Source of the DNA: Candidatus Omnitrophica bacterium UBA6249
Lineage (GTDB): Bacteria; Omnitrophota; Gorgyraeia; Gygaellales; Profunditerraquicolaceae
NCBI GenBank assembly: GCA_002441305.1
Contig: DJVT01000002.1
Coordinates: 16,335-80,334, forward strand
Direction: 5' to 3'
Length of the DNA stretch: 64,000 nucleotides
Shown: piece by piece, positions 16,854 to 53,157 of the stretch
Numbering within the stretch: the first letter of the stretch is position 1
Layout: each line of letters begins with the position of its first letter
The notes under the pieces: model-generated
What the model was told of the DNA's origin: nothing
The model's input: the letters and a program-made list of their open reading frames with translations, nothing else
Databases searched by the model: none
Translations under genes and position numbers: made by a program

Positions 16854-16855
16854 TT

Positions 16856-33546: not shown

Positions 33547-34155
33547 TTATTTTATATGTCTCGATATGGCATTGAATACCCGGCCGGCTATAACTTTATA
33601 ACCGCGGGCGTTCGGATGAAAAAAATCGCTTTTCATCGATGGGTTGGTAATAATCTTATTAAGCACGACAGGAATGAATACGGCTTGTTTTTTCTCTGCC
33701 AGCCTTTTAAAGGCCTTTCTGTATTGTTTAAAGAACATCCCCGCGCTTATGTCCATTAAGGCGACCATTGCCCCGCGTTCCTGGATAAGGTCGATAATCC
33801 GGTCCAGGTTTTCTATGGTCGTTTCCTCGGGGATATTTTTCAGAAAGTCGTTCCCGCAGAATTCGACAATAACCAGCCTGGGATTCTTAGAAAGCACATC
33901 CTGCTCTAAACGTTCCAGGGCGGCAAAAGAAGTATCTCCGTCAACGCCCGCGTTAATTACCGGAGCTTTGAGCATCTTCTCCAGGACAGAAGGATAATCA
34001 TCCCCCCGGTTTACCCCGTATCCGAAAGTAATACTGTCTCCGAAACAAATAATATTGCCGTCTTTTTTCCCTGCGTTCCTGATTTCCTGCCTGGTGCACC
34101 CGGCCAAAATGAAGGCTGCGGCAACCAGCACAATCGTTTTATTAATTATTTTCAT
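33547..34155 (-). CDS. SGNH/GDSL-family hydrolase lipoprotein (TesA/arylesterase-like)
   Basis: 202 aa. Lipobox FILAGC. Block I ICFGDSITFGYG, block III EFCGND, block V FHPNARG. Confidence 0.8.
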   Translation of the reverse strand: MKIINKTIVLVAAAFILAGCTRQEIRNAGKKDGNIICFGDSITFGYGVNRGDDYPSVLEKMLKAPVINAGVDGDTSFAALERLEQDVLSKNPRLVIVEFCGNDFLKNIPEETTIENLDRIIDLIQERGAMVALMDISAGMFFKQYRKAFKRLAEKKQAVFIPVVLNKIITNPSMKSDFFHPNARGYKVIAGRVFNAISRHIK

Positions 34156-35224
34156 GTCTCAGCCTCAACTGTCCGCATGCGGCGTCGATATCGGCCCCTC
34201 TCCTTTTCCTCAAAGTAACATTGACCCCGGACTTTGCCAGGCATTCCTTAAAACATAACGCCTGCGCGGCTGAAGGAGGAATGATTTTCTTTCCGCTTAC
34301 GGGGTTTGCCGGAATCAGGTTGACCTTAGCCAGTCTCAGTCCGGACAACAGGATAGCCAGCTTCCGGGCGCAAGACAAATCCGAATTGAGCCCCTTGATC
34401 AAAATGTACTCGAAAGTTATCTGCCGGTTGGTGGCCTCGATATACTCATTGCAGCAAGGGATCAATTCCCCAAGCGGGTATTTACGGTTCACCGGCATAA
34501 TCTCCGTGCGCAACTTATCATCCGCAGCATGCAAAGAAACGGATAACTCCACCTGCAAATCCTCCTCTTTCAACTTATTGATCCCCGGAATAATCCCGCA
34601 AGTGGAAATAGTAATATGCCTGGCACCTATATTGAAGGCATCCGGAGAATTGATCATCCTGACAGCCTGTAATACATTGGCATAATTATCCAGCGGTTCT
34701 CCCGTGCCCATAAATACGACATTGTTCAGCCTTGCTTTATGCAGCTGGCTTTTCAATAACAGTATTTCATCCAGAATTTCACCGCATTTTAAATTACGCC
34801 TGAGACCTTTAACCCCGCTGGCGCAAAATCCGCAGGAAAACTTACATCCGGCCTGAGAGGAGATACAGGCGGTAACCCCGGAATAAGATCCGGCACAGGA
34901 CCTGCCAGAATCGCCCGGCAGACGCAAGGCCATAGGAATATTCACTCCTTCGACTAAGTTGCCGTCGTAAAGCTCAAAAAGCAATTTTTCGGTCCCGTCC
35001 GAAGACCTGCTCCCTGCGGATTTCTTGAGCCCCAAGATATAAAAATTACTATTAAGCTTCTCTCTAAGCGGCAGGGGAATATCGCTCATCTGGCTGAAAC
35101 TTAATGCCCCTTTTTGAAAAATCCAGGTAAATATCTGCTTGGCGCGGTATCCGGGCACTCCCCAAGACGCCAGCCTGTCTTTCAAGCCGCTTAAGCCGAT
35201 ATCCTTAACGTCCTCCATAATCAA
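34142..35224 (-). CDS. rlmN: 23S rRNA/tRNA (adenine-C2)-methyltransferase RlmN (radical SAM)
   Basis: 360 aa. N-terminus YRAKQIFTWIF, radical SAM cluster CKFSCGFCASG, GTGEPLDN, and a C-terminal ...DIDAACGQL motif. Confidence 0.85.
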   Translation of the reverse strand: MIMEDVKDIGLSGLKDRLASWGVPGYRAKQIFTWIFQKGALSFSQMSDIPLPLREKLNSNFYILGLKKSAGSRSSDGTEKLLFELYDGNLVEGVNIPMALRLPGDSGRSCAGSYSGVTACISSQAGCKFSCGFCASGVKGLRRNLKCGEILDEILLLKSQLHKARLNNVVFMGTGEPLDNYANVLQAVRMINSPDAFNIGARHITISTCGIIPGINKLKEEDLQVELSVSLHAADDKLRTEIMPVNRKYPLGELIPCCNEYIEATNRQITFEYILIKGLNSDLSCARKLAILLSGLRLAKVNLIPANPVSGKKIIPPSAAQALCFKECLAKSGVNVTLRKRRGADIDAACGQLRLRHENN

Positions 35225-36729
35225 ACACCGCTTCTTAGCTTCTCTTTATCCACCTTGCCGGATCGGTTCTTGGGAAGTTCTGCGCGAAAATCAAAGCAAT
35301 GGGGTATCTTAAAATGAGCCAGGTGCTGGCGCAGAAAATAACGCAAATCTTCTTCCAAAAGATCGCTTCCTTCCCTGCGCACCAGGAAGGCTTTAGGCAC
35401 TTCTCCTCTCAATTTATCCAGTACCCCTACCACGGCGGCCTCGGCGATATCCGGATGCTTCAGCAAAACCGACTCCACCTCCGGTTCGAAAACAATCTCC
35501 CCGCCCACCTTAATCATCTCTTTCTTTCTCCCTACGATATAAAGAAATCCTTCATCGTCGAATCTGCCGAGGTCTCCGGTATAAAACCACCCGTCGCGGA
35601 CAGTTTCACGGGTGAGCTCTTCATCCTTAAGATAGCCATCGGTTACTACCCAGCTCTTCACTGCCACTTCTCCAATCTGTCCATTCTCCAGTTTTTGCTG
35701 GCCTTCGCCAAAAATCCCTACGTCAATCCAGGGAGCGGGCCGGCCTACGCTCTCTATTTTATCCGACCCCATAGGCAAGACTACGGTAGGAGCGTTTGTT
35801 TCGGTAAGCCCCCAGCCGTTCAAAAGATAGGCCTTGGGGCAAAATTTATGGAATCTGCGCAAAGCATCGGGCGAGCTTGAAGCGCCAAAAGTCACTATCC
35901 ATCGCAAGCTGGATAAATCGAAGGTTTCAAATTCCTTCAGCTGCAGCAACGCATAATACATAGAAGGGACGATCCAAAAGAAATTTACCTTATGGCCTTG
36001 AACGTTTCTCAGGAAATCCAAAGGCATGAACCTCTCCATCAACACCATGGTCAGGCCAAAAGTAATCGTATTCTGGATATAAATCAACCCACCCAGATGG
36101 GAGAAGGGTAAGGCGCATAAAGTAACATCCCGAGAAGAAATGTCCTTATTCACGAAAAAGGCCATCGATTTCGGAGGAGCATTCAATTGCTTGTAGCTAA
36201 TCAGTACCCCTTTGGGCTTTCCCGTAGTACCGGAAGTATAAAAGACGATGGCATAATCATTTTCTTTGAGCGGGAGTCCGGAAAAATCCTGCCGGGAGCA
36301 AGAAAGCAGGTCTTCGAAATTTAAAGCACCCTCTTCCCTGCGGCGGCAGGAAATAATATGTTTCAATAAAGGCAGGTTTTCCTTAAGGCGGGAAATCGAA
36401 ACATTGGCCTTATGCTTGGTGACAAGAACCTTTGCCTCGCAATGGCTTAAACAGGAAATTATTTCATCCTCGGTAAGCATAAAATCCAAAGGGACCGCGC
36501 ATGCCCCAATCGACCAAATTGCCAAATAACTGTAAATGTATTCCGGCCAGCTGGGCAAATATATGGCCACCTTGTCTCCGGGGCTTATACCCAGATTTAT
36601 CATGTTTTGGGCCAGGGCGAAAACTTTACGCTTAAGTTCAAGAAAAGAAATTGCTTCCTGGCCAAAAAGTACAGCGGTTTTCCCGCCGTAATCCGCAGCA
36701 CATTTTTTTAGAATATTCACAACATCCAT
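35221..36729 (-). CDS. AMP-dependent acyl-CoA synthetase/ligase
   Basis: 502 aa. AMP-binding motif YTSGTTGKPKGV, plus YTGDLGRFDDEGFLYIVGRKKEMIKVGG. Confidence 0.85.
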   Translation of the reverse strand: MDVVNILKKCAADYGGKTAVLFGQEAISFLELKRKVFALAQNMINLGISPGDKVAIYLPSWPEYIYSYLAIWSIGACAVPLDFMLTEDEIISCLSHCEAKVLVTKHKANVSISRLKENLPLLKHIISCRRREEGALNFEDLLSCSRQDFSGLPLKENDYAIVFYTSGTTGKPKGVLISYKQLNAPPKSMAFFVNKDISSRDVTLCALPFSHLGGLIYIQNTITFGLTMVLMERFMPLDFLRNVQGHKVNFFWIVPSMYYALLQLKEFETFDLSSLRWIVTFGASSSPDALRRFHKFCPKAYLLNGWGLTETNAPTVVLPMGSDKIESVGRPAPWIDVGIFGEGQQKLENGQIGEVAVKSWVVTDGYLKDEELTRETVRDGWFYTGDLGRFDDEGFLYIVGRKKEMIKVGGEIVFEPEVESVLLKHPDIAEAAVVGVLDKLRGEVPKAFLVRREGSDLLEEDLRYFLRQHLAHFKIPHCFDFRAELPKNRSGKVDKEKLRSGV

Positions 36730-38216
36730 TATAATCCGTACCAGAAATTGACCAGTGGTTTGCCTTCCGGCGAAAGATCCAGGACCGTATTCTTGAGCCT
36801 GGTGTACTCAAGGAATCCTGACTGCCCCATCTCTTTTCCAAAACCGCTCTGCTTAAAACCTCCATAAGGCAGCTGGTTGTAAAACATCCCGTATGTATTC
36901 ACCCATATGGTACCGGCGTTTATCTGCCTGGATACTTCCCGGGCTAAAGATAAATCTTTGCTCCAAACACATGCGGCCAGGCCAAAATCCGCATCGTTGG
37001 CAAGTTTTACGGCTTCGTCTGGTCCGGAAAATTTGTTTATCAATACTACCGGTCCGAAAACCTCTTCCCTGAATATGCGTGAATGCGTATTCACGTCCGC
37101 CAAAACTGCCGGTTCCAGGAAATACCCGTTCTTCAATTCAGGATCTTCGGGTATCCTGCCGCCGCAGACAAGCCTCGAGCCTTCCGCCTTCGCCTTATCT
37201 ATGTAAGCCATGACTTTCTTACGCTGGGCATCGTTAATCAACGGGCCCATCTGGGTCTGAAAATCTTCCGCAATCCCCAATTTTATACGCCTTGCCTTAT
37301 TTGTAAAATCCGCAAGGAACCTGTCGTATATGCTTTCCTGGACCAGTATCCTGGACATGGCGGTACACATTTCCCCCTGGTTAAGGAATATGGATGTAAG
37401 CGAGCTGTTGACTGCCACCTCCGGATCAACGTCATCGAATATTATGCTGGCTGATTTTCCCCCTAATTCCATAGTCATCTTTTTCACGCTCTTTGAGGAA
37501 TACTGCAATATCTGCCTGCCTGTTTCGTTGCTTCCCGTGAACGAGATCATATCCAGGCGCCTGTCTGCGCAAAGCTCCTCGCCTATCAGGGATCCGCTTC
37601 CGTTTACGACATTTACCACCCCGGGGGGCAACCCGGACTTCCTTATAATCTTTGCCAGTTCAAAAGCCGTAAGGGGAGTCAAACTGGAAGGCTTCAAAAC
37701 AACAGTATTGCCTGCTGCCAAAGCGGAAGCCAGTTTCCAACAGGCGATCAAAAGCGGGTAATTCCAAGGTATGACCAGAAGAGCAACCCCCAAAGGCTCG
37801 CGGGAAAGGCAGGCTTTAGCTTCCCCGGAAACGGATATCTCTTCATCGCGCAAATAATCCATGAAATTGTTTGCTGCAAAATCGAAAGCCCTGGCGCTGG
37901 AAGGAACATCCATAAATGTCGTTTCTTTTATCGGTTTTCCTGTATTCTGTGTTTCCAGCTGCGCAAGAACTGCAGCCTCATCTAGAATTCCCTGGGCAAT
38001 CTTTAAAATAAAATCCTTGCGCTCCGCCAAAGAGAACGCTGTCCACGGCCCAGAATCAAAAGCGCTCCTTGCGGCGGACAAAGCCAAATCCACTTCCTTA
38101 AAAGAAGCCATCGAGGCTTCCGCAATTACCCTGCCGGTAGAAGGGTTAATAATGTTTTGTCTATTCGGAGTATCGATAAATTCTCCGTTTATAAAAAGCG
38201 GGCATTTCGAATCCAT
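36729..38216 (-). CDS. NAD(P)-dependent aldehyde dehydrogenase
   Basis: 495 aa. ELGGKSA, catalytic-Cys region FLNQGEMCTA, EEVFGPV. Confidence 0.9.
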   Translation of the reverse strand: MDSKCPLFINGEFIDTPNRQNIINPSTGRVIAEASMASFKEVDLALSAARSAFDSGPWTAFSLAERKDFILKIAQGILDEAAVLAQLETQNTGKPIKETTFMDVPSSARAFDFAANNFMDYLRDEEISVSGEAKACLSREPLGVALLVIPWNYPLLIACWKLASALAAGNTVVLKPSSLTPLTAFELAKIIRKSGLPPGVVNVVNGSGSLIGEELCADRRLDMISFTGSNETGRQILQYSSKSVKKMTMELGGKSASIIFDDVDPEVAVNSSLTSIFLNQGEMCTAMSRILVQESIYDRFLADFTNKARRIKLGIAEDFQTQMGPLINDAQRKKVMAYIDKAKAEGSRLVCGGRIPEDPELKNGYFLEPAVLADVNTHSRIFREEVFGPVVLINKFSGPDEAVKLANDADFGLAACVWSKDLSLAREVSRQINAGTIWVNTYGMFYNQLPYGGFKQSGFGKEMGQSGFLEYTRLKNTVLDLSPEGKPLVNFWYGL

Positions 38217-39230
38217 TTAGACCTCTTTCGCGCAAGTTCTAATTTTTACCTCTTTAAACAAAGCAAATAACCTGGTAAAAGGCACATACCATTTAGAAAG
38301 CTGCCCCAATTGGCCGCTCAATTTCATCTTGCCCTGCGTAACCGCCACAAAACAATCCAATCTGCCCAAGAAAACCTGCTCCCAGACATCCGCAGGCGCC
38401 GATATCACAAACGGAGCCTGCGCGTCAAAATCAAGCTTGATGATTTTGCCTTTTTCAAAATTGAACTTATACGCTTGTTCGCATCCGTCCATCTTTACAG
38501 CGAGGCTAACCGTTAAATCCAGCTCTCTCCCCTTCTCCCCAATAAAAGAATCTTTATTAACCAGATCCACGATCGCCTCAATATGCTCCCGGCTGAACAT
38601 GGCATAAGAAACCTGGCTCTTCTTCAAATCGTCCCTTAAAGCTGTATCCAATCCGTCTAAAATATTCTTATCGAACAAGCGCGCCAATGCCGCGCTCTTT
38701 ACCGCCTCTTCCAGCGCCTCGGTAACATCAAGCGCATCAACAAACTTGTCTGCGATCGCTATTACTCCATGATTCCTCAATACGACCAGATTACTGCTTT
38801 TCAAAGCTGCAATCACCGGGCCCGGAACGGTTACCGTAGGAGTATCCTGGTCTATTACCGGGATATCCCCCAAATAGAATTTAGTCTCAAAGCTCATCGC
38901 CTTGAGTGTCTTGACAACGGCAAAATATCCATTAATCAACGGAGGGTGGCAATGCAGGATAACCTTAGAAGGGAAATTTCTGTAGATCAGGCTATGCAAA
39001 GGCAACTCGGAACTGGGTTTTATATCCGGCATAAGGCTGTCTGCGGAAAGATCAACCTTGATTACGTCTTTTTCCGTCAACCTGCCTAATGACGAACCGC
39101 TGGAGGTAATCAGTATATGTTTTTCGCTCACCCTAACACTTAAATTTCCTGACTTGGCTACCGCCAACCCCGCTAAATGCAATTGCTTGCCTGTTTCTAT
39201 AATCTCTCTGACCGCTTCTTGTTCCAGCAC
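38217..39230 (-). CDS. Class II aldolase/adducin-family domain fused to C-terminal SCP2-like domain
   Basis: 337 aa. N-terminal ~200 aa are aldolase_II-like (AKSGNLSVRV, ILHCHPP, LRNHGVIA). The C-terminal ~110 aa, ...FVISAPADVWEQVFLGRLDCFVAVTQGKMKLSGQLGQLSKW..., fit an SCP2 sterol-carrier fold pattern. Confidence 0.7.
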   Translation of the reverse strand: MLEQEAVREIIETGKQLHLAGLAVAKSGNLSVRVSEKHILITSSGSSLGRLTEKDVIKVDLSADSLMPDIKPSSELPLHSLIYRNFPSKVILHCHPPLINGYFAVVKTLKAMSFETKFYLGDIPVIDQDTPTVTVPGPVIAALKSSNLVVLRNHGVIAIADKFVDALDVTEALEEAVKSAALARLFDKNILDGLDTALRDDLKKSQVSYAMFSREHIEAIVDLVNKDSFIGEKGRELDLTVSLAVKMDGCEQAYKFNFEKGKIIKLDFDAQAPFVISAPADVWEQVFLGRLDCFVAVTQGKMKLSGQLGQLSKWYVPFTRLFALFKEVKIRTCAKEV

Positions 39231-39231
39231 T

Positions 39232-40155
39232 CTACACCTCCAAATGAATATGTTTTGTTATCAGGCGGGCGGGAGTAACATCAAAAGCCGGATAATAAGC
39301 CTTGACCTCCCTGGGAGCAAGCAATATCCCCCGGTAAAACTTAAGTTCATTTTCAGGGCGGATTTCGATTTTTATTTCCTTGCCGCTCTTCAGTCTTGAA
39401 GGAGGCGGGCATAATACATAAAAAGGTATTTTAAAATACCTGGCAACAACGGCAATCTGGTAAGTGCCGATCTTATTCGCGATATCCCCGTTTTTAGCCA
39501 AGTGATCCGCCCCTACAATCACCTTGGTTACCTTGCCCAAAGACAGAAGATATGCCACCATGTTATCCGTGATAACAGTAACGGGGTATCCGGCCTTCAT
39601 AAGCTCCCAGGCAGTCAAACGCGACCCCTGGAGATACGGGCGCGTTTCCGTGACATAAAAACTGATTTTTTTGGCATCTTTCCTGGCAAATTCCGCTATC
39701 AAAGGCAACAAACCGCTGACGTTGCAATGCGTAAGAATAACATCGCCGTCCTTAAGTAATCCGGCCGCCTGAAACGCCTGTTTCATCCGGCTCCTCTTGA
39801 GCCTCTCCAGGAAATCCGGAATGCTTTTTTCCAGCGGGATCCCGCGCTTTTCCCAATCAAGCACCATATCGGTCAAAACCTTGAACGAAAGCGTGGGACG
39901 GGTGGAATTAATCGCCTTGGCTACCTTAGCCAAATTGACCTTCTGCATCCTGCTTAAAAGAAAAGTATACATAACCAAGAGCACCTGCCCAACCGCGCGC
40001 GTTTTCATGTCCTTGATTGCCGCGCAGGACTGGCGGTAACCCCTGGATTTTATATAAACCTCTCTCTGGGGGAGCCTTGTTTCATCTAATATATAAATAA
40101 CCTTCCCCTTCATGCGCACCGGCCAAAATAAAGGAGAAAGACCCCCCGTTTTCAT
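39232..40155 (-). CDS. mtnA: eIF-2B/MtnA-family sugar-1-phosphate isomerase (methylthioribose-1-P isomerase-like)
   Basis: 307 aa. IVGADHLAKNGDIANKIGTYQIAVVARYFKIPFYVLCP is the family hallmark. It is shorter than typical MtnA. Confidence 0.6.
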   Translation of the reverse strand: MKTGGLSPLFWPVRMKGKVIYILDETRLPQREVYIKSRGYRQSCAAIKDMKTRAVGQVLLVMYTFLLSRMQKVNLAKVAKAINSTRPTLSFKVLTDMVLDWEKRGIPLEKSIPDFLERLKRSRMKQAFQAAGLLKDGDVILTHCNVSGLLPLIAEFARKDAKKISFYVTETRPYLQGSRLTAWELMKAGYPVTVITDNMVAYLLSLGKVTKVIVGADHLAKNGDIANKIGTYQIAVVARYFKIPFYVLCPPPSRLKSGKEIKIEIRPENELKFYRGILLAPREVKAYYPAFDVTPARLITKHIHLEV

Positions 40156-40901
40156 CTGCCCTCCATCCTCTTGACCAATTCCAACGATATATTGATCAAA
40201 TTGCTTTCCGCCATGTAATAAAGAGGATTCATGAACCCCATCTCTCCGGTAATCACATTATCGCTGACCGCCAGGATAGAGCCAGCTTTGATATTGTATG
40301 TCTGGCAAATCGTCAAAATAGTAGAAGACACCATATCTACCGCTTTCGCCCCCTCGGCACGCTTAGCTTCGATAATATCCCGGGTCTCGCGCAGCAATGC
40401 GTCAGTAGTCCAGGCCTTGCCGCGGTGCACACTCAACCCCATTCCCTTGGCTATTTCGAATAATAAATCGGATATCCCCTTATCTGCGGCAGTCTTGAAG
40501 TCATCCTTGACATAATAAGGAGTCACTCCGTCTCCCCGGATAACCTCATCAACAACGAATAAATCCCCGACCTTCATAGAATCGTCGAGCGCCCCGCAGG
40601 TGCCTATGCGGATTATATTCTGTATGCCCGCATTGCACATTACTTCCGTAGTAATTGACGTATCGGTGGAAAACCTCCCCCCGTTTATAGCGGTGACCTT
40701 GATTCCGTCGAAGGCCCCGGTATACATAGTATATTCCATAAAAGAAAAATTGCGCACCGGATTTTCGATTTTCTTCATCAATACGTCCAGCCTGTCACGC
40801 GGTCCGGGAACGATTGCGTACTTCCCTACATCCTGGGGCCTGAGCTGAACCATTTGTGTCAAATCCTTGCCTGTCAAGTGTACATCTTTTTTCATCTGCA
40901 T
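40152..40901 (-). CDS. PNP_UDP_1-family nucleoside phosphorylase
   Basis: 249 aa. ...IIRIGTCGALD..., ...DMVSSTILTI..., ...SDNVITGE... fit purine/uridine/MTA phosphorylase family 1. It is the first gene of the operon. Confidence 0.75.
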   Translation of the reverse strand: MQMKKDVHLTGKDLTQMVQLRPQDVGKYAIVPGPRDRLDVLMKKIENPVRNFSFMEYTMYTGAFDGIKVTAINGGRFSTDTSITTEVMCNAGIQNIIRIGTCGALDDSMKVGDLFVVDEVIRGDGVTPYYVKDDFKTAADKGISDLLFEIAKGMGLSVHRGKAWTTDALLRETRDIIEAKRAEGAKAVDMVSSTILTICQTYNIKAGSILAVSDNVITGEMGFMNPLYYMAESNLINISLELVKRMEGR

Positions 40902-40925
40902 AACAAAGTTCTCCTCTCGTTTATC

Positions 40926-41255
40926 CTAAGCACGATACATAATTACACTGGCCTTCTCAAGGGTAACCAGGCCTTCTTTGACCATTGCGTCCAAATGGGG
41001 TATAAACTTGCCTATTTTGTCCTCACTGTCCACAATCTCGACAACGACAGGCAAGTCCTCAGACAATCTTAACAGTTTGGCAGTATGCATATGGCTCTTG
41101 CGCCCGAACCCCATAAACCCCTTCCATGCCGTAGCTCCTGCCAAACCCATCCTTTTTGCCAAGATTACTATTTCTTCATAAAGCGGCTTACCGTTCCACT
41201 TATCCGTTTCTCCGATAAAAATCCTTAAAAGCTTGCCGTCTTCGGGAATTTTCAT
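40926..41255 (-). CDS. DUF190 domain protein (CrcB-associated)
   Basis: 109 aa. LLRIFIGETDKWNGKPLYEEIVILAKRMGLAGATAWKGFMGFG is the DUF190 pattern. Overlaps the crcB stop. Confidence 0.75.
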   Translation of the reverse strand: MKIPEDGKLLRIFIGETDKWNGKPLYEEIVILAKRMGLAGATAWKGFMGFGRKSHMHTAKLLRLSEDLPVVVEIVDSEDKIGKFIPHLDAMVKEGLVTLEKASVIMYRA

Positions 41256-41626
41256 ATTATTTCTCCTAAATAAGATCCTGCTCTGAATAAGATCAGTCCA
41301 AAAACCAGGCTGGCAAAAAGATTCAGGGAAGCGCGCATAATCTGGCCGCTTCTTAGCAGGGTGTCGGTCTCGAATATAAATGTGGAAAAAGTGGTAAAGG
41401 CGCCGCAGAAGCCGATCATTAAAAGCATTCTCGCATCGGGGCTGAGCACGAACTTCTTCTCAGATAAAGAAGCAAGTAACCCCAGGATAAAACACCCGCA
41501 AACATTAACAGCCATTGTCCCATAAGGAAAAGAGGTCCCGGCAACTCTATAAACAAACCCCGACAATAAATATCTGGCTGCCGTTCCCGCTGCGCCACCA
41601 ATGACTAAATTGATGAATTTTGTCAT
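41252..41626 (-). CDS. crcB: Fluoride ion channel CrcB/FluC
   Basis: 124 aa, four TM helices. GGAAGTAARY...GFCGAFTTFSTF is typical of CrcB. Confidence 0.9.
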   Translation of the reverse strand: MTKFINLVIGGAAGTAARYLLSGFVYRVAGTSFPYGTMAVNVCGCFILGLLASLSEKKFVLSPDARMLLMIGFCGAFTTFSTFIFETDTLLRSGQIMRASLNLFASLVFGLILFRAGSYLGEII

Positions 41627-41634
41627 AAGAATAG

Positions 41635-42546
41635 TTAGAGACCGAAGATTTCTCTCAAATTCCCGCCCAATATGCCGCTTTTATCTTCCTCGGACAGGTC
41701 TAAATCCTTTACCGCTTTTAACCCAGGTTGAATATCTTGTTTGGCCGGCCAGTCGCTTCCCCATAAAATACGCTTCGGCCCCATAAGTTCAAGCGCTAAG
41801 GAAAAATTTGCCGTGCTGGCGTCCCCGCTGGTATCCACATAAATATTCCTGAGGTACTCGGAAGGCAGCCCCTGCAGGTCTTTAACAAAATTAATCCCGC
41901 GCAGCATCCGGTAGGTGGCGTCAAAACGCTGTTTTAAGTAACATACCGCTCCGCCGAAATAAGGGAAAACGAATTTTACCTTCGCATAGCGCCTTAATAT
42001 ATCCGACATCAGCAATTTTCCGGCGGAGATCGTGGTGTCGAACACGTATTCCACTACTGGCGTAAGCAGGGGATCCTTCACGCGTTCGAAACCTATTGGA
42101 TTTACAATCTGCGGGTGCACAAAAATGGGGATGGAATGCTCGGCGCAATATTCATATACGGGAAGAAACATCCTGTCGTCAAGATATATCCCGTTGTAGC
42201 TTGAAGCCAGGGAAACAGCTCTAAACCCCAACTCTTCGCTTGCCCGCTTCAATTCCCCAAGCATATCGATGGAGTTATCCACCGGCATCACTGCCGCCCC
42301 GATAAACCTCCCGGGGAAACGCTTGAGTATCAAAGAAACATTGTCGTTATATATATGCGCGACTTGGCTGATACTGCCTAATTTCAAATGGGCATCGGAC
42401 GTAGGATAGCTCAATACGGCTGCATCTATGCCTTCCCTGTCCATGGACTTAACCTGTGATTCGATATCCCCCCACCCTTTATGGAAAAAATGGGCATTGG
42501 AGATAATTTCCTCCGGCAACCAGTGGCTATGCGCGTCAATCAACAT
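41635..42546 (-). CDS. Amidohydrolase-2 family metal-dependent hydrolase
   Basis: 303 aa. MLIDAHSHWLPEE...; the TIM-barrel amidohydrolase_2 pattern runs to ...LWGSDWP. Confidence 0.8.
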   Translation of the reverse strand: MLIDAHSHWLPEEIISNAHFFHKGWGDIESQVKSMDREGIDAAVLSYPTSDAHLKLGSISQVAHIYNDNVSLILKRFPGRFIGAAVMPVDNSIDMLGELKRASEELGFRAVSLASSYNGIYLDDRMFLPVYEYCAEHSIPIFVHPQIVNPIGFERVKDPLLTPVVEYVFDTTISAGKLLMSDILRRYAKVKFVFPYFGGAVCYLKQRFDATYRMLRGINFVKDLQGLPSEYLRNIYVDTSGDASTANFSLALELMGPKRILWGSDWPAKQDIQPGLKAVKDLDLSEEDKSGILGGNLREIFGL

Positions 42547-42959
42547 CAGTGTTCAGTGCTCCTTAATATGCGTCCGGACATCTCTTCTTCATAGAGATCC
42601 CTAATCCTCTCCAGGCCTCGCCTGCCAAGCTCTTTTACTATAAGTTTTTCTACCGCATTAAGTTTAAAATCAAGAAAAATAAACTCGGGGTTGATTTTTT
42701 TGCCGCGGTATTTCAGTTCCAAGCAAGCCTTTTCTTTATCCGAAATATACTGGCGGTATTGATTAATGAATTTTTCTAATGCGGTTTTGTCGTGCGGCAG
42801 ATAAGCGCCAAGCAGCTGATTTTCTATCTCGGAAAGCAGATCTTTGTCTATGTCTATCTGGGTAAACTTGCGCTCATATTTATCGAATGCTTCTTTAGTC
42901 GTCTTATACAGCCATAGGAGATAACGCCTTCTTAAGTTTTTTATGTCCTGATTATTCAT
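42546..42959 (-). CDS. Hypothetical protein (137 aa, helical, K/E-rich)
   Basis: ORF only; coupled to the downstream amidohydrolase (stop/start share base 42546). No recognisable motif. Confidence 0.5.
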   Translation of the reverse strand: MNNQDIKNLRRRYLLWLYKTTKEAFDKYERKFTQIDIDKDLLSEIENQLLGAYLPHDKTALEKFINQYRQYISDKEKACLELKYRGKKINPEFIFLDFKLNAVEKLIVKELGRRGLERIRDLYEEEMSGRILRSTEH

Positions 42960-43018
42960 TGCTGTTCTCCTTTCGGGACTGTGCCGCAGAAAGCGTTCCG
43001 GTTATGATGTTTAACGGC

Positions 43019-43636
43019 CTATTCTTTTACCAGTTCAACCGTATCGAAGTACAACGTTCCGCTGGAGCCGGCGAGCGGCTCGAATTGAAACACCTTTATG
43101 GGAAAATCCAGCTTCCAGTTCTGCTCGGCATTCTCCGGCTGCCAATCGTCGCGCAGCACAAACTTGTCGAAACTGCAGACTACCCGCTTCCACCCTTTAA
43201 AGTCGTCTTGTGCGATAAAACGCCAGATCTCTCCGCCGTTATCTTTGATATCAAAAGCGATTTTTTCTTTCGAATCGGTACCATAGACATAAAAAGAAAT
43301 TGCGTTATACTCCTGCCATTTTATATCGGAAGGGCTAACCTGCCAATCAGCGTTCTTCGCATCCAGCCCGCTGCCTTTAGCCACATAAATATACCCCCCT
43401 TCCACGGCATCATAAACCACCTTGAGAGAACTTTCTCCGCTGTTTTTTATATCGGTATCCCTGGTAACCGTGACTGCAGACCCGTTCCCGGCTCCAAAAT
43501 CAACCGTACCCTCCGGCCCGGAAGTCACGGAAACCTCAAAGTCATCGATTAATGTCCCATTATCGGCAAAACAGGCAACGGAAATCCCCAGAAATATTGC
43601 TGCCATGAAAAATATTTTTTTCATCGATACCTCCAT
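43019..43636 (-). CDS. Secreted protein with carbohydrate-binding-module/CIA30-like beta-sandwich pattern
   Basis: 205 aa. Signal peptide MKKIFFMAAIFLGISVACFA. DDFE...SLKVVY...W..YNAISFYVYG...FKGWKRVVCSFDKF...LYFDTVELV resembles CBM11/CIA30-type domains (pattern-level call). Confidence 0.5.
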   Translation of the reverse strand: MEVSMKKIFFMAAIFLGISVACFADNGTLIDDFEVSVTSGPEGTVDFGAGNGSAVTVTRDTDIKNSGESSLKVVYDAVEGGYIYVAKGSGLDAKNADWQVSPSDIKWQEYNAISFYVYGTDSKEKIAFDIKDNGGEIWRFIAQDDFKGWKRVVCSFDKFVLRDDWQPENAEQNWKLDFPIKVFQFEPLAGSSGTLYFDTVELVKE

Positions 43637-43666
43637 TTTATATTCCTTTTAACAAGCGCGGCGAAT

Positions 43667-44443
43667 TCATTTGCCGGGATGTTGCTGCTTAAAGGGGATT
43701 ACCGGAGCCGTCCACGGAGTCCTTTGGTTAATTACCGAAATCTCCAGAGGGCAAACGTTTGCCGGTACGGTTAAAGCAAAACGCACCGCATCCTCGATAG
43801 CCTGCGTGCTCATAAGGCGGGAGGTGTCGTTGCTGATCTCTTTGAGTTTGCCGGTCAGGTCTGTATCGGTTACCCCGGGCATAATGGAAGTTACTTTAAT
43901 CCCGTGGTCGCGCAGTTCCCAGAATAGCCCTTTGGAAAAAGCCTTAAGCCCCACCTTAAGAGAGCTGTAGACTATGAAATTCCTGGGAAGAGGGTCGCAC
44001 AATGTCGACCCTGAAACCATGTTTATGATTGCCCCGCTTTTATCTTTAATCATATCTCCGATCACCAGCCGGATAAGCCTGACATACCCGAGATAATTCG
44101 TATAAGCGAGCCTTTCGATATCCTCCAACGGTTGATCCTGAAAAGGATACTGGCTTGATACTCCGGCATTATTGATCAATACGTCTATCTTGGTAAATTC
44201 TTTCTTGGCTGACGCCACCAGGTTCTCCAAGTCGCTTAATTTGGTAACGTCGCAAACAACCGGAAGCACCCGCACATTGAACCGCTCTGCCAATTCCTTT
44301 GCGGTTTCCTCAAGGGGGCCCTTCGTACGTGCCCCGATAACCAGATTCATCCCTAAAGCTGCCGCGGTGGATGCAAGCGCCTTGCCTATTCCCCGGCTGG
44401 CTCCGGTAACAACCGCAGTCCTGCCCTTCAATTCCAACCCCAT
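43667..44443 (-). CDS. Short-chain dehydrogenase/reductase (possible polyketide ketoreductase)
   Basis: 258 aa. TGASRGIGKA, NNAG, catalytic YSSLK. Confidence 0.85.
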   Translation of the reverse strand: MGLELKGRTAVVTGASRGIGKALASTAAALGMNLVIGARTKGPLEETAKELAERFNVRVLPVVCDVTKLSDLENLVASAKKEFTKIDVLINNAGVSSQYPFQDQPLEDIERLAYTNYLGYVRLIRLVIGDMIKDKSGAIINMVSGSTLCDPLPRNFIVYSSLKVGLKAFSKGLFWELRDHGIKVTSIMPGVTDTDLTGKLKEISNDTSRLMSTQAIEDAVRFALTVPANVCPLEISVINQRTPWTAPVIPFKQQHPGK

Positions 44444-44452
44444 AATCCCTCC

Positions 44453-45574
44453 TTATTTTTGACTAAGCAAAAACCTTCCTGTAAACAAAATAGCAAGCAG
44501 CATGAAACCAAAACAGAGAAACGCCATAGAAAAACTTTTATGCATAAGAAAACCGCCCAAACCTGCGCCTACCCCCCCGGAGATAAAACGCACGCCGCTG
44601 TTTAACCCCGCGGCCTCATTCAAAAATCCCTCGGGTAAATCCGTGAGCAGGGTCGCCAGGGCGGCATGGTTGAAGGTCCAGCTTAGCCCCCAAAAAACCA
44701 TCACAATAGCCAAAGGCCCCAGTGACATCCTTGCTAAAAACAAACAAGCGCAGGCAATCATTCCAACCGCCCCCAAACAAGCCACCTTCCCCCGTCCTAT
44801 CTTATCCGATAGGCGGCCTCCCCAGAGTTCTCCAAATACCCCGCTGAAACTGGTCAGGGTAATCAAAATACTTATATAAAACTGCTCCAGGAAAAGCTGG
44901 GTGGAAAAATATACGCCAAGCCATTGCTGTATCCCGTGGTAAACCAGGCTTATAGAAAATATATATATGAACAACCCGATTGCCTTCCTGCTCCTGAACA
45001 ACAAGGGATATCCAAAACGGATCTTTTGTTCCCCCGCTTCAATATCCGGCATATAAAAATACATAAAAACCCAAAGAGCAAAACCAAAACAGGCGGGAAT
45101 TACGAATATTGCACGCCACGGGATTACCCCGCTCAAAAGCAGCCCCGCCAGGGAAGAAACAAAAGAAGAGGCGAAAAAGACGCCTATGTGCCCGCCGCGC
45201 GCATCCTTACGCGCGTATCTGGATATAAGTATAATCCCAAGCGGGATTACTGAAGCCCCAAAAATTCCCATCAGGAACCGGGCGATAAAGAGCATCCGGA
45301 TATGCCCGGCGAACCCAGCCATAAGGTTCGACAGAGAAAATAAGAAAATACAGGTCAGCTCTATTTTTCTGGCGTTGAATAACCTTACCAGCGGTCCATA
45401 GAAAAGGGCGGCCAAACCATAGGGGATCATATACAACCAGATTATGTTCCCGGTCACGAACTGAGAAAGAGCGAAAGAGGAAGCGATCGAAGGAACTAAT
45501 GCGGAAGAAGCGGCAACATTGAAAGAAAGAACCGCCCCTTCCAGGCAGAGAATAAAAAACAAAATCCTTTTCAC
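44453..45574 (-). CDS. MFS transporter
   Basis: 373 aa, ~11-12 TM helices. MFS loop motif-like ...GRLSDKIGRGK.... Confidence 0.85.
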   Translation of the reverse strand: MKRILFFILCLEGAVLSFNVAASSALVPSIASSFALSQFVTGNIIWLYMIPYGLAALFYGPLVRLFNARKIELTCIFLFSLSNLMAGFAGHIRMLFIARFLMGIFGASVIPLGIILISRYARKDARGGHIGVFFASSFVSSLAGLLLSGVIPWRAIFVIPACFGFALWVFMYFYMPDIEAGEQKIRFGYPLLFRSRKAIGLFIYIFSISLVYHGIQQWLGVYFSTQLFLEQFYISILITLTSFSGVFGELWGGRLSDKIGRGKVACLGAVGMIACACLFLARMSLGPLAIVMVFWGLSWTFNHAALATLLTDLPEGFLNEAAGLNSGVRFISGGVGAGLGGFLMHKSFSMAFLCFGFMLLAILFTGRFLLSQK

Positions 45575-46011
45575 CTTCTGACTTCTTTTTCGATTACTTC
45601 TTTAAATATTTTCAGGTTGTGTTGTGAACCCTCGTTGATAAAACCCTCTATTTGCTTATCGTCGAATTTAGCCTTTTTATCCATGTGAAAATGCTGTATC
45701 CATGTCAATTCCACCCCGTCTTCCCGGAGAGTATAAAGCCAGATAATTTTCATGTATTCAAAAGGAAACTTTGGATCCTGACGCTCGGCGTAAGTAAAGC
45801 ACCTGTCTTTAAAAAGAAGCCGCCATGAAACCCAGCTTTTACCGTCTTCGTCCGTAAGACGAAAAGTTATCTTATTGGAGTTGCGTTCAAGCAATTCGGC
45901 ATTTTTATATTCCTGGCCGAATAATTCCGTCCATCTGGGGATATCATTGGATATATCAAACACCAGATCGTAAGGGGCGTTAATCAATATCGAATTGCAG
46001 GTATGTCCCAT
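45571..46011 (-). CDS. SRPBCC-fold polyketide cyclase/aromatase-like protein
   Basis: 146 aa. ...INAPYDLVFDISNDIPRWTELF...; the size and pattern match monodomain ARO/CYC (Polyketide_cyc) proteins. Start overlaps the MFS gene. Confidence 0.65.
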   Translation of the reverse strand: MGHTCNSILINAPYDLVFDISNDIPRWTELFGQEYKNAELLERNSNKITFRLTDEDGKSWVSWRLLFKDRCFTYAERQDPKFPFEYMKIIWLYTLREDGVELTWIQHFHMDKKAKFDDKQIEGFINEGSQHNLKIFKEVIEKEVRR

Positions 46012-46044
46012 CTTGCCTCCCGGTTTTCATTTAACAGAGCATGG

Positions 46045-46848
46045 CTATTGCTCAAAAAGGGCAACTACCCTGGACCAGGCCGCCCCGGTTCCCTTTATCC
46101 TCACAGGAAAACAAATAATCTTGAATCCGGAACCGGGAAGCTTATCCAAATTTGCCAGCCTCTCTATATGGATAAACTCCCTTTTCCGTCCATAGAAATG
46201 TGCGGGATAAAAATTCTTGGGGTCTTTTGTCTTCAAAAATTCTCCTAACATGAATTTATACGGCCGGTCGATCCCCATGGTATCGACGCCAAATACTTTT
46301 ACTCCGGAGTTAAGCAAGAAATCTATGGCGGAAGTCGCAACTCCGGGGTAGTCGGAAAAATACTTTGGCCCGCCGTATAATTTGTCCGCCCCCGTACGGA
46401 ACAAAACAATATCCAGCGGCTTGATCTGGTATCCTATCTTTCCAAGCGCGGATTTGACATCATAGACATTGATCGTCTCATCCGGCTTCTTATGTGTCAT
46501 ATCAAGACATACCCCGTCATGATAACAATACTCCAGAGGGATCTCATCCGCAGTCTTCGAAGAACGGTTTTCCGTCCTTGAACCGTAATGAAAAGAGTAA
46601 TCCAGATGGGTGCCTATATGCACGGGAGAATGCACAATCTCCAAGGAAAGAAACTCCTCATCGGGAAGCTGTTCTTTTTTTATTATGCGCATACCCAGGG
46701 CGTATTTGACCTTTCCTAAAAGGGTCTTGCCCATAATCACACGGTTAAACTTGGATACCCCCTCTTTATGCCCGACACGTTCGATATCAACCTTATGTAC
46801 TTCAAAAGCTTTCTCGTCGATGGGCAAACTTAAATCGATAATCTTCAT
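46045..46848 (-). CDS. Cyclase-family protein (PF04199-type, kynurenine-formamidase fold)
   Basis: HSPVHIGTHLDYSFHYG fits HxGTHxDxxxH. ATG 46848 overlaps the ACP stop (ATGA); the track start 46863 is the alternative. Confidence 0.75.
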   Translation of the reverse strand: MKIIDLSLPIDEKAFEVHKVDIERVGHKEGVSKFNRVIMGKTLLGKVKYALGMRIIKKEQLPDEEFLSLEIVHSPVHIGTHLDYSFHYGSRTENRSSKTADEIPLEYCYHDGVCLDMTHKKPDETINVYDVKSALGKIGYQIKPLDIVLFRTGADKLYGGPKYFSDYPGVATSAIDFLLNSGVKVFGVDTMGIDRPYKFMLGEFLKTKDPKNFYPAHFYGRKREFIHIERLANLDKLPGSGFKIICFPVRIKGTGAAWSRVVALFEQ

Positions 46849-47081
46849 TTTGTCATCTTGCATTGAATGCTGCTGGCGATTTCTTCTATTGTCGAATTCT
46901 TAGTGACCTCTTTTACGTCTAACTTTACCCCAAACTCCTTTTCCAGGGCAATCACCGATTCCACCATTTCGGTCGAATCCACCCCTATACTGGAGGATAA
47001 GGATTCTCCGTCCTTTAATTCTTCGATTTTTATTTTTAGCAGACTTGCCAGCGTTTCCTTCACTTTTGTCTTTATATCCAT
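46845..47081 (-). CDS. Acyl carrier protein
   Basis: 78 aa from ATG 47081 (RBS GGAGGGGG). MDIKTKVKETLASLLKIKIEELKDGESLSSSIGVDSTEMVESVIALEKEFG, with the phosphopantetheine-Ser motif DS. Confidence 0.75.
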   Translation of the reverse strand: MDIKTKVKETLASLLKIKIEELKDGESLSSSIGVDSTEMVESVIALEKEFGVKLDVKEVTKNSTIEEIASSIQCKMTK

Positions 47082-47127
47082 ACCCCCTCCAGCCCCTTTG
47101 CTTAGGCGTTTATGCTTTATTGTTCGA

Positions 47128-48591
47128 CTATATCTGTACTTCCCCCCCTGCTGCAGCTGCCTCCCATTTGCCAACCCCGTCCATTACGTCCTTGAAACAA
47201 AGTTTGGCGAGCGGGTCGAAATTGCTTTCCATTATACGGTTTATCCTGCCGGGCTTGGAAAAGAACTCGCGCATACACCATGAACCAAGCCTGCCCAAAT
47301 CCTCTGTGGTCAGATAATCGGTAGGTATTACCGGATGCAGGAAATCCCACGTACTGAAATCAACCTTCTTGGGATCGACCCAGTTCTTCTTGAGGGATAT
47401 CCTCCACATCGGGGAGTTCGGCGCCGGGGTAACATAACCTATCCACAACACATCCGGGTCAGCCTGGTCGGCAAATTCAAACCTCTGTTTTATGATTTCT
47501 TCGGTGTCGTAATCAAACCCCATCATAATGTCAGCTACGACTGCGATATCGTTCTTGCGCAGGATCTCAATCGTCTTTTTGATCTGCTCTATAGTCGTGC
47601 CCTTGGCTATCTTTTTCAACTCTGCCTGAGTGGTAACCTCTATGCCGAATACCCCCATGATCAAACCGACTTCTTTCATCAAAGGAACCACCGATTCGCA
47701 ATTTACCCAATCCACCGCTCTGCCCAAAGAAAACCATTTGGTCGGAATCCCTTTTTCTTTCTTAAGCTCGCAGAATCTCTTTACGCGTTCCGGATCAACG
47801 TTAAAATTGTCATCTTGTATGCCTACGACTTGTACGCCATATTTCTTGTGCAAAAGCTCCAGCTCCTCAATAACGCGTTCGGGGGATTTAGCGCGCCACT
47901 TCAAGAAATCCGAAGGGTGGCGCGGATCAAATTGGTCCCATTCGTAACAAAATGTGCAGGCTGAAGGACAGCCGCGCGAAGTGACCATGTCCACAAAAGG
48001 CTTCCAGTAAGTATGCCCGACATATTTATCCATGGGAAACAGGTCGTAAGCGGGCAAAGGAAGTTTATCCAGATCGGTCATTAACGGCTTATGCGGCCCC
48101 ATGACAATCTCCCCGTCTACGCGGACAGTCACCCCTCCGATATCTTTCAGGTTCTTCTTCTTATCTATCGCCTCAATCAGGTCGGCAAATGATTCCTCTT
48201 CGCCCATAACTACAAAATCCACCGCGGGATTCTCTTCGAGAGTCGGTACGGGCATAGCTGAATACCATAAGCCGCCCAGAATTATTTTTACCGAAGGAAG
48301 CTCTTTCTTGATTCTCTGGGAAGCCTCACGGAAATGACGCAATACCCCATACCCTCCGTAACCGTGTATCTGTTCTCCCATAACTACTATATCCGGATTC
48401 TTGGCTTTCACCTGTTCGACAAGCTGATCCATAGGGATCTCCAGGGCCCTCCCGTCTATGACTGAAACGTCCGAATATCCTCGTTCGCGTATATAGGCTG
48501 CCCAATGCGCATATAGCTGGTTCGGCGATCTATGTATACCGTGAGTTGCCCAGGCTCCTACCTTAGGCATTACGAATAATATCTTCATCAC
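47128..48591 (-). CDS. B12-binding-domain radical SAM enzyme (class B radical SAM)
   Basis: 487 aa. N-terminal cobalamin-binding-like Rossmann region (KILFVMP...DIVVMGEQ...KIILGG) plus radical SAM cluster SRGCPSACTFC (CX3CX2C). Confidence 0.85.
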   Translation of the reverse strand: MMKILFVMPKVGAWATHGIHRSPNQLYAHWAAYIRERGYSDVSVIDGRALEIPMDQLVEQVKAKNPDIVVMGEQIHGYGGYGVLRHFREASQRIKKELPSVKIILGGLWYSAMPVPTLEENPAVDFVVMGEEESFADLIEAIDKKKNLKDIGGVTVRVDGEIVMGPHKPLMTDLDKLPLPAYDLFPMDKYVGHTYWKPFVDMVTSRGCPSACTFCYEWDQFDPRHPSDFLKWRAKSPERVIEELELLHKKYGVQVVGIQDDNFNVDPERVKRFCELKKEKGIPTKWFSLGRAVDWVNCESVVPLMKEVGLIMGVFGIEVTTQAELKKIAKGTTIEQIKKTIEILRKNDIAVVADIMMGFDYDTEEIIKQRFEFADQADPDVLWIGYVTPAPNSPMWRISLKKNWVDPKKVDFSTWDFLHPVIPTDYLTTEDLGRLGSWCMREFFSKPGRINRIMESNFDPLAKLCFKDVMDGVGKWEAAAAGGEVQI

Positions 48592-48618
48592 TCCCTCCCT
48601 TTTTATCTATTTCTCCGT

Positions 48619-51110: not shown

Positions 51111-51139
51111 TTTACGTAATACTCCGCATTATAAACACC

Positions 51140-52761: not shown

Positions 52762-52763
52762 AA

Positions 52764-53042: not shown

Positions 53043-53079
53043 GCGCCTAAAACCGGGAAGGACCCGGATTATTAAATAT

Positions 53080-53097: not shown

Positions 53098-53113
53098 TGT
53101 ATTTTATGGTCTT

Positions 53114-53142: not shown

Positions 53143-53157
53143 GGAGTAATATCAGGA

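Follow-up and report, generated by a model that had tools for sequence, protein, structure and literature searches.

The dihydroxyacetone phosphate (DHAP) shunt, through which 5-deoxyribose is disposed of, combines MtnP, or MtnN together with MtnK, with the isomerase MtnA or DrdI and the aldolase Ald2 or DrdA (Beaudoin 2018, PMC6079011; PMC10986504; PMC12632272). A shunt started by a phosphorylase has already been described in Clostridium phytofermentans, and the analogy between the shunt and the route through fluoroacetaldehyde has been noted (PMC6079011). We analyzed a 64,000-nucleotide stretch of Candidatus Omnitrophica bacterium UBA6249 (contig DJVT01000002.1, positions 16,335 to 80,334; the window hereafter), whose minus strand carries genes for a family-1 nucleoside phosphorylase, an isomerase of MtnA type, a class II aldolase with a fused SCP2 domain, an aldehyde dehydrogenase (ALDH) and an acyl-CoA ligase. 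These five genes (35221-40901) are a real module that is conserved phylum-wide. They constitute a sub-module of a cluster headed by PadR and about 20 kb long (window ~35221-53673), which also encodes a KS/CLF pair (ketosynthase and chain-length factor), an acyl carrier protein (ACP) and a B12-binding radical S-adenosylmethionine (SAM) enzyme (B12-rSAM). The phylum itself, the Omnitrophota, consists of abundant, almost wholly uncultivated and partly host-dependent nanobacteria.

The module follows, as predicted from homology, the three-step logic of the DHAP shunt, has genes of the three superfamilies side by side, and retains the Zn/Mn ligands along with the catalytic Cys and Asp. It differs in its phosphorylase, which is of the hexameric DeoD/Udp-like kind, has Val in place of Glu181 and is no MtnP, in the SCP2 domain carried by the aldolase, in the dedicated ALDH and FadD-type ligase, and in being embedded in a KS/CLF-ACP-B12-rSAM cluster instead of standing free. 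An earlier note on this DNA had read the genes as an extended DHAP shunt for the disposal of 5'-deoxyadenosine (5'-dAdo) and methylthioadenosine (MTA). The chemical part of that proposal survives: the triad carries the catalytic hallmarks, among them the phosphate ligands of the phosphorylase, and homology gives good support to a predicted chemistry of the DHAP-shunt type. A disposal operon that stands by itself is not supported, as the module lies within the PadR-KS/CLF-ACP-B12-rSAM cluster.

Other pathways that start from SAM-derived nucleosides bear comparison as well. In the Streptomyces cattleya route a SAM-derived 5'-substituted 5'-deoxyadenosine passes from the fluorinase FlA to the FlB phosphorylase, an isomerase, an aldolase and a fluoroacetaldehyde dehydrogenase. 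This pathway to fluoroacetate and 4-fluorothreonine matches the module step for step, from phosphorylase through MtnA-like isomerase and class II aldolase to ALDH, so that the ALDH step, which the earlier note had held to be an extension outside the described chemistry, has a precedent (PMC6079011). The Omnitrophota cluster differs by its ligase and KS/CLF, by the lack of a fluorinase or chlorinase among the scanned open reading frames (ORFs) and by its crcB gene being a recent insertion. The salinosporamide chloroethylmalonyl-CoA route employs the chlorinase SalL and the phosphorylase SalT and leads to a polyketide synthase (PKS) extender unit. There, phosphorolysis of a SAM-derived 5'-deoxynucleoside begins the conversion of its sugar carbons into a CoA-activated PKS building block, through a phosphatase, a dehydrogenase, a dehydratase, a decarboxylase and CCR where the module has isomerase, aldolase, ALDH and ligase. 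MqnE, MqnB and MqnD eject dihydroxyacetone from an adenosyl adduct, of which two ribose carbons are retained, and HpnH and HpnG make ribosylhopane. The futalosine (MqnE/B/C/D) and hopanoid (HpnH/HpnG) pathways are comparable in that a radical SAM enzyme makes an adenosyl adduct, whose base is then taken off by a family-1 nucleoside phosphorylase or nucleosidase. However, we identified no MqnE- or HpnH-type enzyme here, and the phosphorylase scores only 51 bits against HpnG (cut-off 187) and 26 bits against futalosine hydrolase.

The remainder of the cluster is most similar to the anammox 'ladderane' Cluster I and to further KS/CLF clusters of non-actinobacterial origin, with a FabF-derived KS and a triad-less CLF, a dedicated ACP and a B12-rSAM (bioRxiv 10.64898/2026.05.19.726425; PMC2649909). 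The recently characterized anammox amxFabF2/amxFabFmut heterodimer is comparable to the KS/CLF pair of the window (48619-51110). Unlike the Omnitrophota cluster, the anammox clusters have no described module of phosphorylase, isomerase, aldolase or ALDH, and ApbA, PadR and cyclase-like proteins of the PF04199 and SRPBCC types are further additions of the Omnitrophota cluster. Omnitrophica KS-CLF pairs have been catalogued but not studied (PMC10132072), and antiSMASH labels such Omnitrophota clusters 'ladderane', with function unknown (PMC9902471). In the literature we came across neither the module nor the aldolase-SCP2 fusion nor the linkage between module and cluster. The five-enzyme module looks like a variation on a known DHAP-shunt-type pathway, of interest mainly for its setting and for the breadth of its conservation.

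To measure this conservation, we compared 97 related loci (cited by L numbers where needed) and took the counts of linked genes from the 28 loci with a fused aldolase and at least 8 kb on each flank. An exact-pattern scan of a genome collection with the aldolase was narrow and returned 5 loci only. An aldolase alignment led, in a metagenome scan, to 80 loci of a second clade, 21 of which have at least 8 kb on each side. Homologs of the fusion at 70-76% identity are all annotated as Candidatus Omnitrophota or Omnitrophica, and an exhaustive representative search added about 25 full-length fusion clusters at 31-40% identity. Profile searches from the fusions and from the nearest unfused aldolases gave named matches in Omnitrophota only. 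Among the named matches of the representative search and the two profile searches, none came from outside the phylum, and the nearest stand-alone aldolases are likewise from Omnitrophota. Since homolog and profile searches return only Omnitrophota among the named matches, the aldolase-SCP2 fusion is a hallmark of this deep phylum.

Across the loci, the conserved unit consists of ligase, phosphorylase, MtnA-type isomerase, aldolase-SCP2 and ALDH, and its partners, despite shuffled order, are PadR, B12-rSAM, ApbA, KS/CLF, ACP and cyclase. The IF-2B-type isomerase and the ALDH lie near the fused aldolase in all 28 loci, the B12-rSAM in 27, the phosphorylase and the ligase in 26 each, and KS/CLF in 23-24. 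These counts support the earlier note in so far as ALDH and ligase are conserved partners of the phosphorylase-isomerase-aldolase triad and a B12-rSAM is almost always beside it. Synteny over more than 20 kb among close relatives is of little weight alone, and the divergent loci are the informative cases. In the second clade, whose aldolase is 38-41% identical, the module follows PadR and starts with the ligase. The order there is PadR-ligase-phosphorylase-isomerase-(IF-2B fragment)-aldolase/SCP2-ALDH-B12-rSAM-hyp92-ApbA-KS-CLF-ACP-cyclase-SRPBCC-MFS, and it is kept in 21 out of 21 well-flanked loci. The window instead reads PadR-hyp92-ApbA-TIGR04076-KS-CLF-B12rSAM-ACP-cyclase-SRPBCC-MFS-SDR, followed by CBM11-hyp137-Amidohydro_2-[crcB-DUF190]-phosphorylase-isomerase-aldolase-ALDH-ligase. 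The module therefore sits at the opposite end of the cluster, with the ligase last instead of first, and PadR, hyp92 and ApbA accompany it in the second clade too. As the linkage outlasts rearrangement over great evolutionary depth, we take it as strong evidence for functional coupling of the module with the KS/CLF-ACP-B12-rSAM genes.

Two of the loci (L004 and L011) keep an isomerase-aldolase-ALDH core without phosphorylase or ligase, in the order B12-rSAM-Amidohydro_2-(aminotransferase IV)-isomerase-aldolase/SCP2-ALDH-DeoC-type aldolase-Zn-ADH, so that Amidohydro_2 adjoins the isomerase where the phosphorylase is missing. An additional small ORF of 141-162 amino acids with a partial IF-2B domain (Pfam positions ~128-213) lies between isomerase and aldolase in 23 of the 28 loci, namely in the second clade and L011 (L010:9583-10008; L012:9523-10011; L011:9543-10019), and has been lost from the clade of the window.

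The phosphorylase (40152-40901, minus strand, PF01048) is nearest to the hexameric Udp and DeoD enzymes and falls far under all NCBIfam equivalog cut-offs (MtnP TIGR01694, 20 bits against 274.85; Udp TIGR01718, 107 against 280; DeoD NF004489, 80 against 230). We aligned 11 orthologs, which are 60-89% identical, to Escherichia coli DeoD, whose sequence was checked against the PDB, and used its residue numbering. In this numbering, Asp204 is the acid at purine N7, Glu181 the ligand of the ribose 2',3'-diol and His4 the ligand of the 5'-OH. Gly20, Arg24, Arg87, Ser/Thr90, Met180 and Ser203-Asp204 are kept in all 11 orthologs, and Glu181 is Val in all 11. Phe159/Tyr160 are replaced by Leu/Leu, and the His4 position aligns with Met in all orthologs, in an N-terminal region that is aligned less reliably. 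The ribose-binding motif, near-universally E-M-E, reads D-M-V in every ortholog, and a conserved 'TDALLRET' stands in place of the DeoD 'SADLFYSPDGE' region; neither is shared by any known family-1 phosphorylase among those compared. We rejected uridine phosphorylase as an identity, since the 14-residue specificity insert of E. coli Udp (Gln166/Arg168 region) is absent and Asp204 is present as 'SDN'. A DeoD-type purine nucleoside phosphorylase (PNP) proper was rejected because of Val at Glu181 and Met at His4, although Asp204 and Met180 are retained. The gene is linked to the module in most relatives, whereas the earlier note had named a plain uridine or purine phosphorylase unlinked in relatives as grounds against its proposal. 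The enzyme is probably a purine-type phosphorylase with a remodeled sugar pocket that would suit a 5'-deoxy or 5'-substituted nucleoside.

The isomerase (39232-40155, minus strand, PF01008) passes TIGR00524 (200 bits against a cut-off of 185.85) and does not pass the mtnA equivalog (215 against 279). Alignment to 1T9K and 2YVK-type M1Pi structures shows that the Cys ('THCN') and Asp ('GADH') of catalysis are retained, as are both phosphate-binding Arg motifs (RxxG/TRPT), in agreement with its assignment as an MtnA/eIF-2B-type aldose-ketose 1-phosphate isomerase. Its gene lies immediately upstream of the aldolase in 61 out of 63 loci.

The aldolase (38217-39230, minus strand) consists of a class II metal aldolase domain (residues 1-190, PF00596) and a C-terminal SCP2 domain (residues 206-337). 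The N-terminal domain has the FucA/DrdA fold, matching 2FK5 and 6BTG at a TMt of about 0.8, and its GNxS, Glu, HxH and H-G elements are invariant in 26 out of 26 fusions. It scores under the cut-offs for MtnB (72-80 bits against 137-226), FucA and ribulose-1-phosphate aldolase. An MtnB dehydratase within methionine salvage, which the earlier note had raised as the competing identity, was rejected on these MtnB scores and on the missing partner genes, as none of mtnB/C/D/K/W/X occurs among the scanned ORFs of the 64-kb window. The SCP2 domain gave a weak signal in the Pfam sequence search (E 0.0015), while a search with a family profile ranked SCP2 structures first (E 1.5e-4). In the fold search, the full-length fusion model matched the aldolase domain only, and we therefore modeled residues 206-337 separately. 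This model (pLDDT 89.7) superposes on the Thermus SCP2 protein 2CX7 with TM-scores of 0.80/0.82 and a root-mean-square deviation of 1.9 A, and SCP2-type lipid-binding domains account for all of the top 44 fold matches. On the model, the C-terminal domain is an SCP2 lipid-binding fold. SCP2 is fused to the aldolase wherever the full cluster is present, and the aldolase is unfused in four reduced Omnitrophota loci (L013, L014, L096 and L097), which are without KS or IF-2B genes. A further unfused aldolase homolog (L015:3649-10570) was observed on an unrelated contig with a radical SAM gene that contains an intein and an HNH domain and with many family-less small ORFs; this contig is possibly a mobile or viral element.

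The fourth gene (36729-38216, minus strand, PF00171, 543 bits) encodes a generic non-acylating NAD(P)+-dependent ALDH of class 1/2, whose closest structures are betaine-aldehyde dehydrogenase and ALDH2-type enzymes. The fifth (35221-36729, minus strand, PF00501 and PF13193) encodes a FadD/4CL-type AMP-forming acyl-CoA ligase, with FadD5, feruloyl-CoA synthetase and 4CL as closest PDB entries. Acetate-specific acetyl-CoA synthetase (ACS) has a Trp at the gate position of the acyl pocket. The A5 motif of the ligase, WG(L/M)TE, has Gly at this position in 50 out of 50 orthologs, which makes acetate an unlikely substrate. The acyl pocket appears to be open rather than acetate-specific.

The two FabF-like ketosynthases (48619-51110, minus strand) differ in their active-site residues, as KS2 (49848-51110) has Cys169, His310 and His347 and KS1 (48619-49848) has lost all three. 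They are, as judged by these residues, a KS/CLF-type pair of a FabF-derived KS and a triad-less CLF-like partner. Downstream lie a PF04199 cyclase, the ACP (46845-47174) and the B12-rSAM (46045-48591 in all, minus strand). The Pfam assignment confirms the B12-binding radical SAM enzyme that the earlier note had placed at 47128. Its best matches, BchE (213 bits) and HpnJ (145 bits), both fall short of the cut-off. Sets of MMPL, DUF1329 and DUF1302 export genes occur beside variant islands (L011:14912-19667; L096:12144-16786; L097:11290-15416), and these neighbors hint at a hydrophobic island product that is exported to the envelope.

From the observed gene content, motifs, folds and linkage we infer the following route. 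The phosphorylase would convert a 5'-deoxy-type purine nucleoside and phosphate into the base and a 5-deoxypentose-1-phosphate, which the isomerase would turn into the ketose-1-phosphate and the aldolase would cleave into DHAP and an aldehyde, R-CH2-CHO. The ALDH would oxidize this aldehyde to R-CH2-COOH, and the ligase would activate the acid as acyl-AMP or thioester. The nucleoside would come from the cluster's own radical SAM enzyme, as plain 5'-dAdo or a 5'-substituted relative. DHAP and the base would be returned to metabolism, and the remaining fragment would be passed as an activated acid to the KS/CLF-ACP line, unless the module is merely co-regulated with it. The SCP2 domain, the open ligase pocket and the lipid-export genes together suggest that the carried fragment exceeds acetaldehyde in size or hydrophobicity, and that the module supplies the chain-building enzymes or is mechanistically tied to them. 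We tentatively favor the reading that the module turns a radical SAM-derived 5'-deoxynucleoside into an acyl unit tied to the KS/CLF-ACP pathway, and we give it a little under an even chance.

Several points weigh against this reading. That the ligase product would reach the ACP or KS is a proposal. Pure removal of a by-product would explain the neighboring radical SAM enzyme just as well. A single phylum supplied all the loci, and the synteny may thus be partly inherited rather than selected. Since the aldol equilibrium favors condensation (PMC6079011), a flux in the direction of synthesis is conceivable. The variants without phosphorylase or ligase indicate that neither the entry nor the exit of the pathway is fixed, and the replacement of Glu181 by Val means that the substrate may not be an ordinary ribonucleoside. 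Neither this replacement nor the phosphorylase-less variants are accounted for by the favored reading or by any of its rivals.

Our second choice, possible although rather doubtful, is pure salvage, in which the module detoxifies plain 5'-dAdo, and perhaps MTA, to DHAP and acetaldehyde, and the latter is carried on to acetate and acetyl-CoA. Clustering would then reflect only co-expression with a heavy producer of 5'-dAdo, which amounts to the idea of the earlier note minus RlmN. The near-constant presence of the B12-rSAM, adjacent or nearby in all loci but one, is what salvage would predict, and disposal of 5'-dAdo by phosphorylase-isomerase-aldolase clusters is established (PMC6079011). AccA, which lies at the edge of the gene array around the cluster, offers a way for acetyl-CoA to re-enter chain synthesis, and the DeoC-type aldolase and Zn-ADH of the PNP-less variants are both acetaldehyde-type enzymes. 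However, a lipid-binding SCP2 domain has no role with a C5 sugar phosphate, and the DHAP-shunt clusters described so far consist of three genes that stand free. Reaching acetyl-CoA through a non-acylating ALDH and then an AMP-forming ligase would also be costly. Acetate or acetyl-CoA as end product is in addition a poor fit with a ligase that is FadD/4CL-like rather than ACS-like and has the gate Gly and open pocket described above.

A more far-reaching reading, which we consider unlikely, is a new way of building lipid or polyketide chains from S-adenosylmethionine. Here, 5'-dAdo or an adduct made by the B12-rSAM would be phosphorolysed, isomerized and cleaved on the SCP2-tethered aldolase, ribose C4'-C5' with any attachments would become the acyl starter for KS/CLF-ACP, and DHAP would be recycled. 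If true, such a starter would be a futalosine-like 'adenosyl C2 homologation' used to initiate chains, and the route would be a hallmark metabolite pathway of an entire uncultivated phylum.

Less probable still is a role in processing an adenosyl adduct, in which the radical SAM enzyme would add the 5'-deoxyadenosyl radical to a hydrophobic olefin, as in the futalosine and hopanoid pathways. Adenine would then be removed, C1'-C3' cut off as DHAP, and the -CH2-CHO extension oxidized and activated for KS/CLF. Such a substrate would give the SCP2 domain on the aldolase a purpose, and it agrees with the remodeled sugar and base pocket of the phosphorylase, where His4 is apparently Met, with a ligase pocket for larger acids and with the tight KS/CLF-ACP linkage. 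Against it, the sole conserved radical SAM enzyme is the B12-binding one, closest to BchE/HpnJ, with no MqnE- or HpnH-like enzyme identified beside it, and the pocket argument depends in part on the uncertain N-terminal alignment of the phosphorylase.

Nucleoside phosphorylases are reversible, and the whole pathway might run in the synthetic direction. The aldolase would condense an SCP2-held chain aldehyde with DHAP, isomerization would give the aldose-1-phosphate, and its coupling to a purine by the phosphorylase would yield a long-chain sugar or nucleoside lipid, with the ligase serving only to activate a starter acid. The aldol equilibrium towards condensation (PMC6079011), the ability of SCP2 to present a lipid aldehyde and the MFS or MMPL exporters in or beside the clusters are compatible with this possibility. 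Nevertheless, the aldehyde-consuming ALDH directly follows the aldolase in 28 out of 28 loci, a better fit to catabolism, and no aldehyde-forming reductase was identified in the cluster. We hold synthesis to be very unlikely.

Ordinary nucleoside or halonucleoside metabolism is even harder to maintain. Ribose-1-phosphate would pass through ribulose-1-phosphate to DHAP and glycolaldehyde and then glycolate, similar to a pentose-bisphosphate route, or a fluoro- or chloro-deoxyadenosine would be converted to a haloacetate. A weak NCBIfam match of the aldolase to the haloarchaeal ribulose-1-phosphate aldolase (74 bits) speaks for the former, but the pocket of the phosphorylase is unlike that of a normal ribonucleoside enzyme. 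For the latter speak the PNP-isomerase-aldolase-ALDH order of the fluoroacetate pathway and the fluoride-export pair crcB and DUF190 (40926-41626, minus strand) directly upstream of the phosphorylase. However, this pair is found only in the closest relatives (L006-L009) and is absent from L001-L005 and L010-L012. No fluoride riboswitch was found at crcB/DUF190, and the restricted distribution together with this lack points to a recent, lineage-specific insertion. No SAM halogenase (SAM_HAT/DUF62) was matched by any ORF scanned in the window or in the conserved cluster, and a fluorometabolite pathway was rejected on these three grounds. With Amidohydro_2 on one side, the phosphorylase on the other and a spacing of only 8 nt from the gene before it, the pair occupies an odd setting for crcB.

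The earlier note had delimited a unit of seven genes by adding to the five RlmN (34142-35224, minus strand) and an SGNH/GDSL hydrolase (33547-34155, minus strand, PF13472). ORF calling on the window reproduced the coordinates of all seven minus-strand ORFs exactly, together with their overlapping or abutting junctions (-4, +1, 0, -1, -4 and -14 nt from phosphorylase to SGNH), and the family assignments of all seven genes were upheld by Pfam/NCBIfam and, for SCP2, additionally by profile and fold. The boundaries of the unit are another matter. The feoA start lies 2 nt past the SGNH stop, and upstream of the phosphorylase a spacing of 24 nt separates it from the end of DUF190/crcB. The packing runs on at both sides, as positions 31589-55906 of the minus strand hold 29 consecutive co-directional genes with a largest gap of no more than 115 nt. 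Given such close packing across 29 genes, tight junctions are the local norm and no marker of a seven-gene operon. A consensus scan for promoters and terminators gave matches not above the level of shuffled sequence.

The comparison of loci separates the five conserved genes from the other two. RlmN generates 5'-dAdo, and the proposed link to the module was built on this activity. RlmN, a methyl synthase for rRNA and tRNA with a housekeeping role, passes the TIGR00048 equivalog (362 bits, cut-off 290) and lies near the module in only 4 of the 28 loci, and SGNH in 3; both are absent in 21 out of 21 second-clade clusters. Three loci (L013, L096 and L097) keep the chromosomal backbone of the window, with DUF212-YkuD-AccA-(PadR) on one side and RlmN-SGNH-AP endonuclease-LeuRS on the other. 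Between these sides they have a reduced island with an unfused aldolase, in which phosphorylase, isomerase, ALDH and KS are all absent. L096 and L097 carry the ligase and MMPL/DUF1329/DUF1302 export genes in this island, and L013 an MFS transporter. Since RlmN and SGNH remain on a backbone without the module, they count as genes of this backbone, which encloses a variable island, and both are housekeeping neighbors only, outside the module. A literal seven-gene operon, in which RlmN as producer of 5'-dAdo and the SGNH hydrolase work with an extended DHAP shunt, is thus the least credible reading of all, with next to no probability, even though the seven genes overlap or abut and stay together in close relatives despite insertions on both sides (L006). 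For the annotation of compact genomes, RlmN and SGNH are a caution that tight spacing does not equal functional linkage.

The content of the island between the fixed backbone sides ranges from the full cluster of about 20 kb down to aldolase, ligase and MMPL. The overlapping RlmN-SGNH pair is conserved independently across Omnitrophota (window 33547-35224; L013:11937-13629; L097:17984-19356), and in L004 RlmN adjoins an RsmB/F rRNA methyltransferase. A radical SAM gene upstream of PadR in L012 was considered as RlmN and rejected, as it is no RlmN homolog.

Few multi-enzyme systems are kept across deep branches of Omnitrophota as this cluster is, and its product is therefore probably central, for example an envelope lipid or a signaling or defense metabolite. 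The constant company of the nucleoside module provides a testable handle on the chemistry of KS/CLF-B12-rSAM clusters mislabeled as 'ladderane'. Pathways that draw useful carbon from SAM-derived 5'-deoxynucleosides form a small family, to which an aldolase fused to SCP2, a phosphorylase with Glu181Val and a DHAP-shunt-like route to an activated acid would be additions.

The remaining genes of the cluster are all on the minus strand. Accessory genes at 41635-46011, syntenic in L001-L009, encode by Pfam an Amidohydro_2 protein, hyp137, a CBM11-like protein, a FabG-like SDR, an MFS transporter and an SRPBCC/polyketide-cyclase-like protein. The head of the cluster (51140-53673) comprises a TIGR04076-family protein, an ApbA/PanE-type reductase, hyp92 and the PadR regulator. 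The TIGR04076-family protein (51140-51766) has 208 amino acids with two matches to a family of about 90 residues, is 59% identical in L012 and stands beside ApbA and KS in some lineages. Elsewhere in the window, a c-di-GMP-I-GGC riboswitch (3567-3657, minus strand, 69 bits against a gathering score of 59) lies beside Tad/type II secretion-like pilus genes (4499-19433), and a GGDEF response regulator is encoded at 23397-24332.

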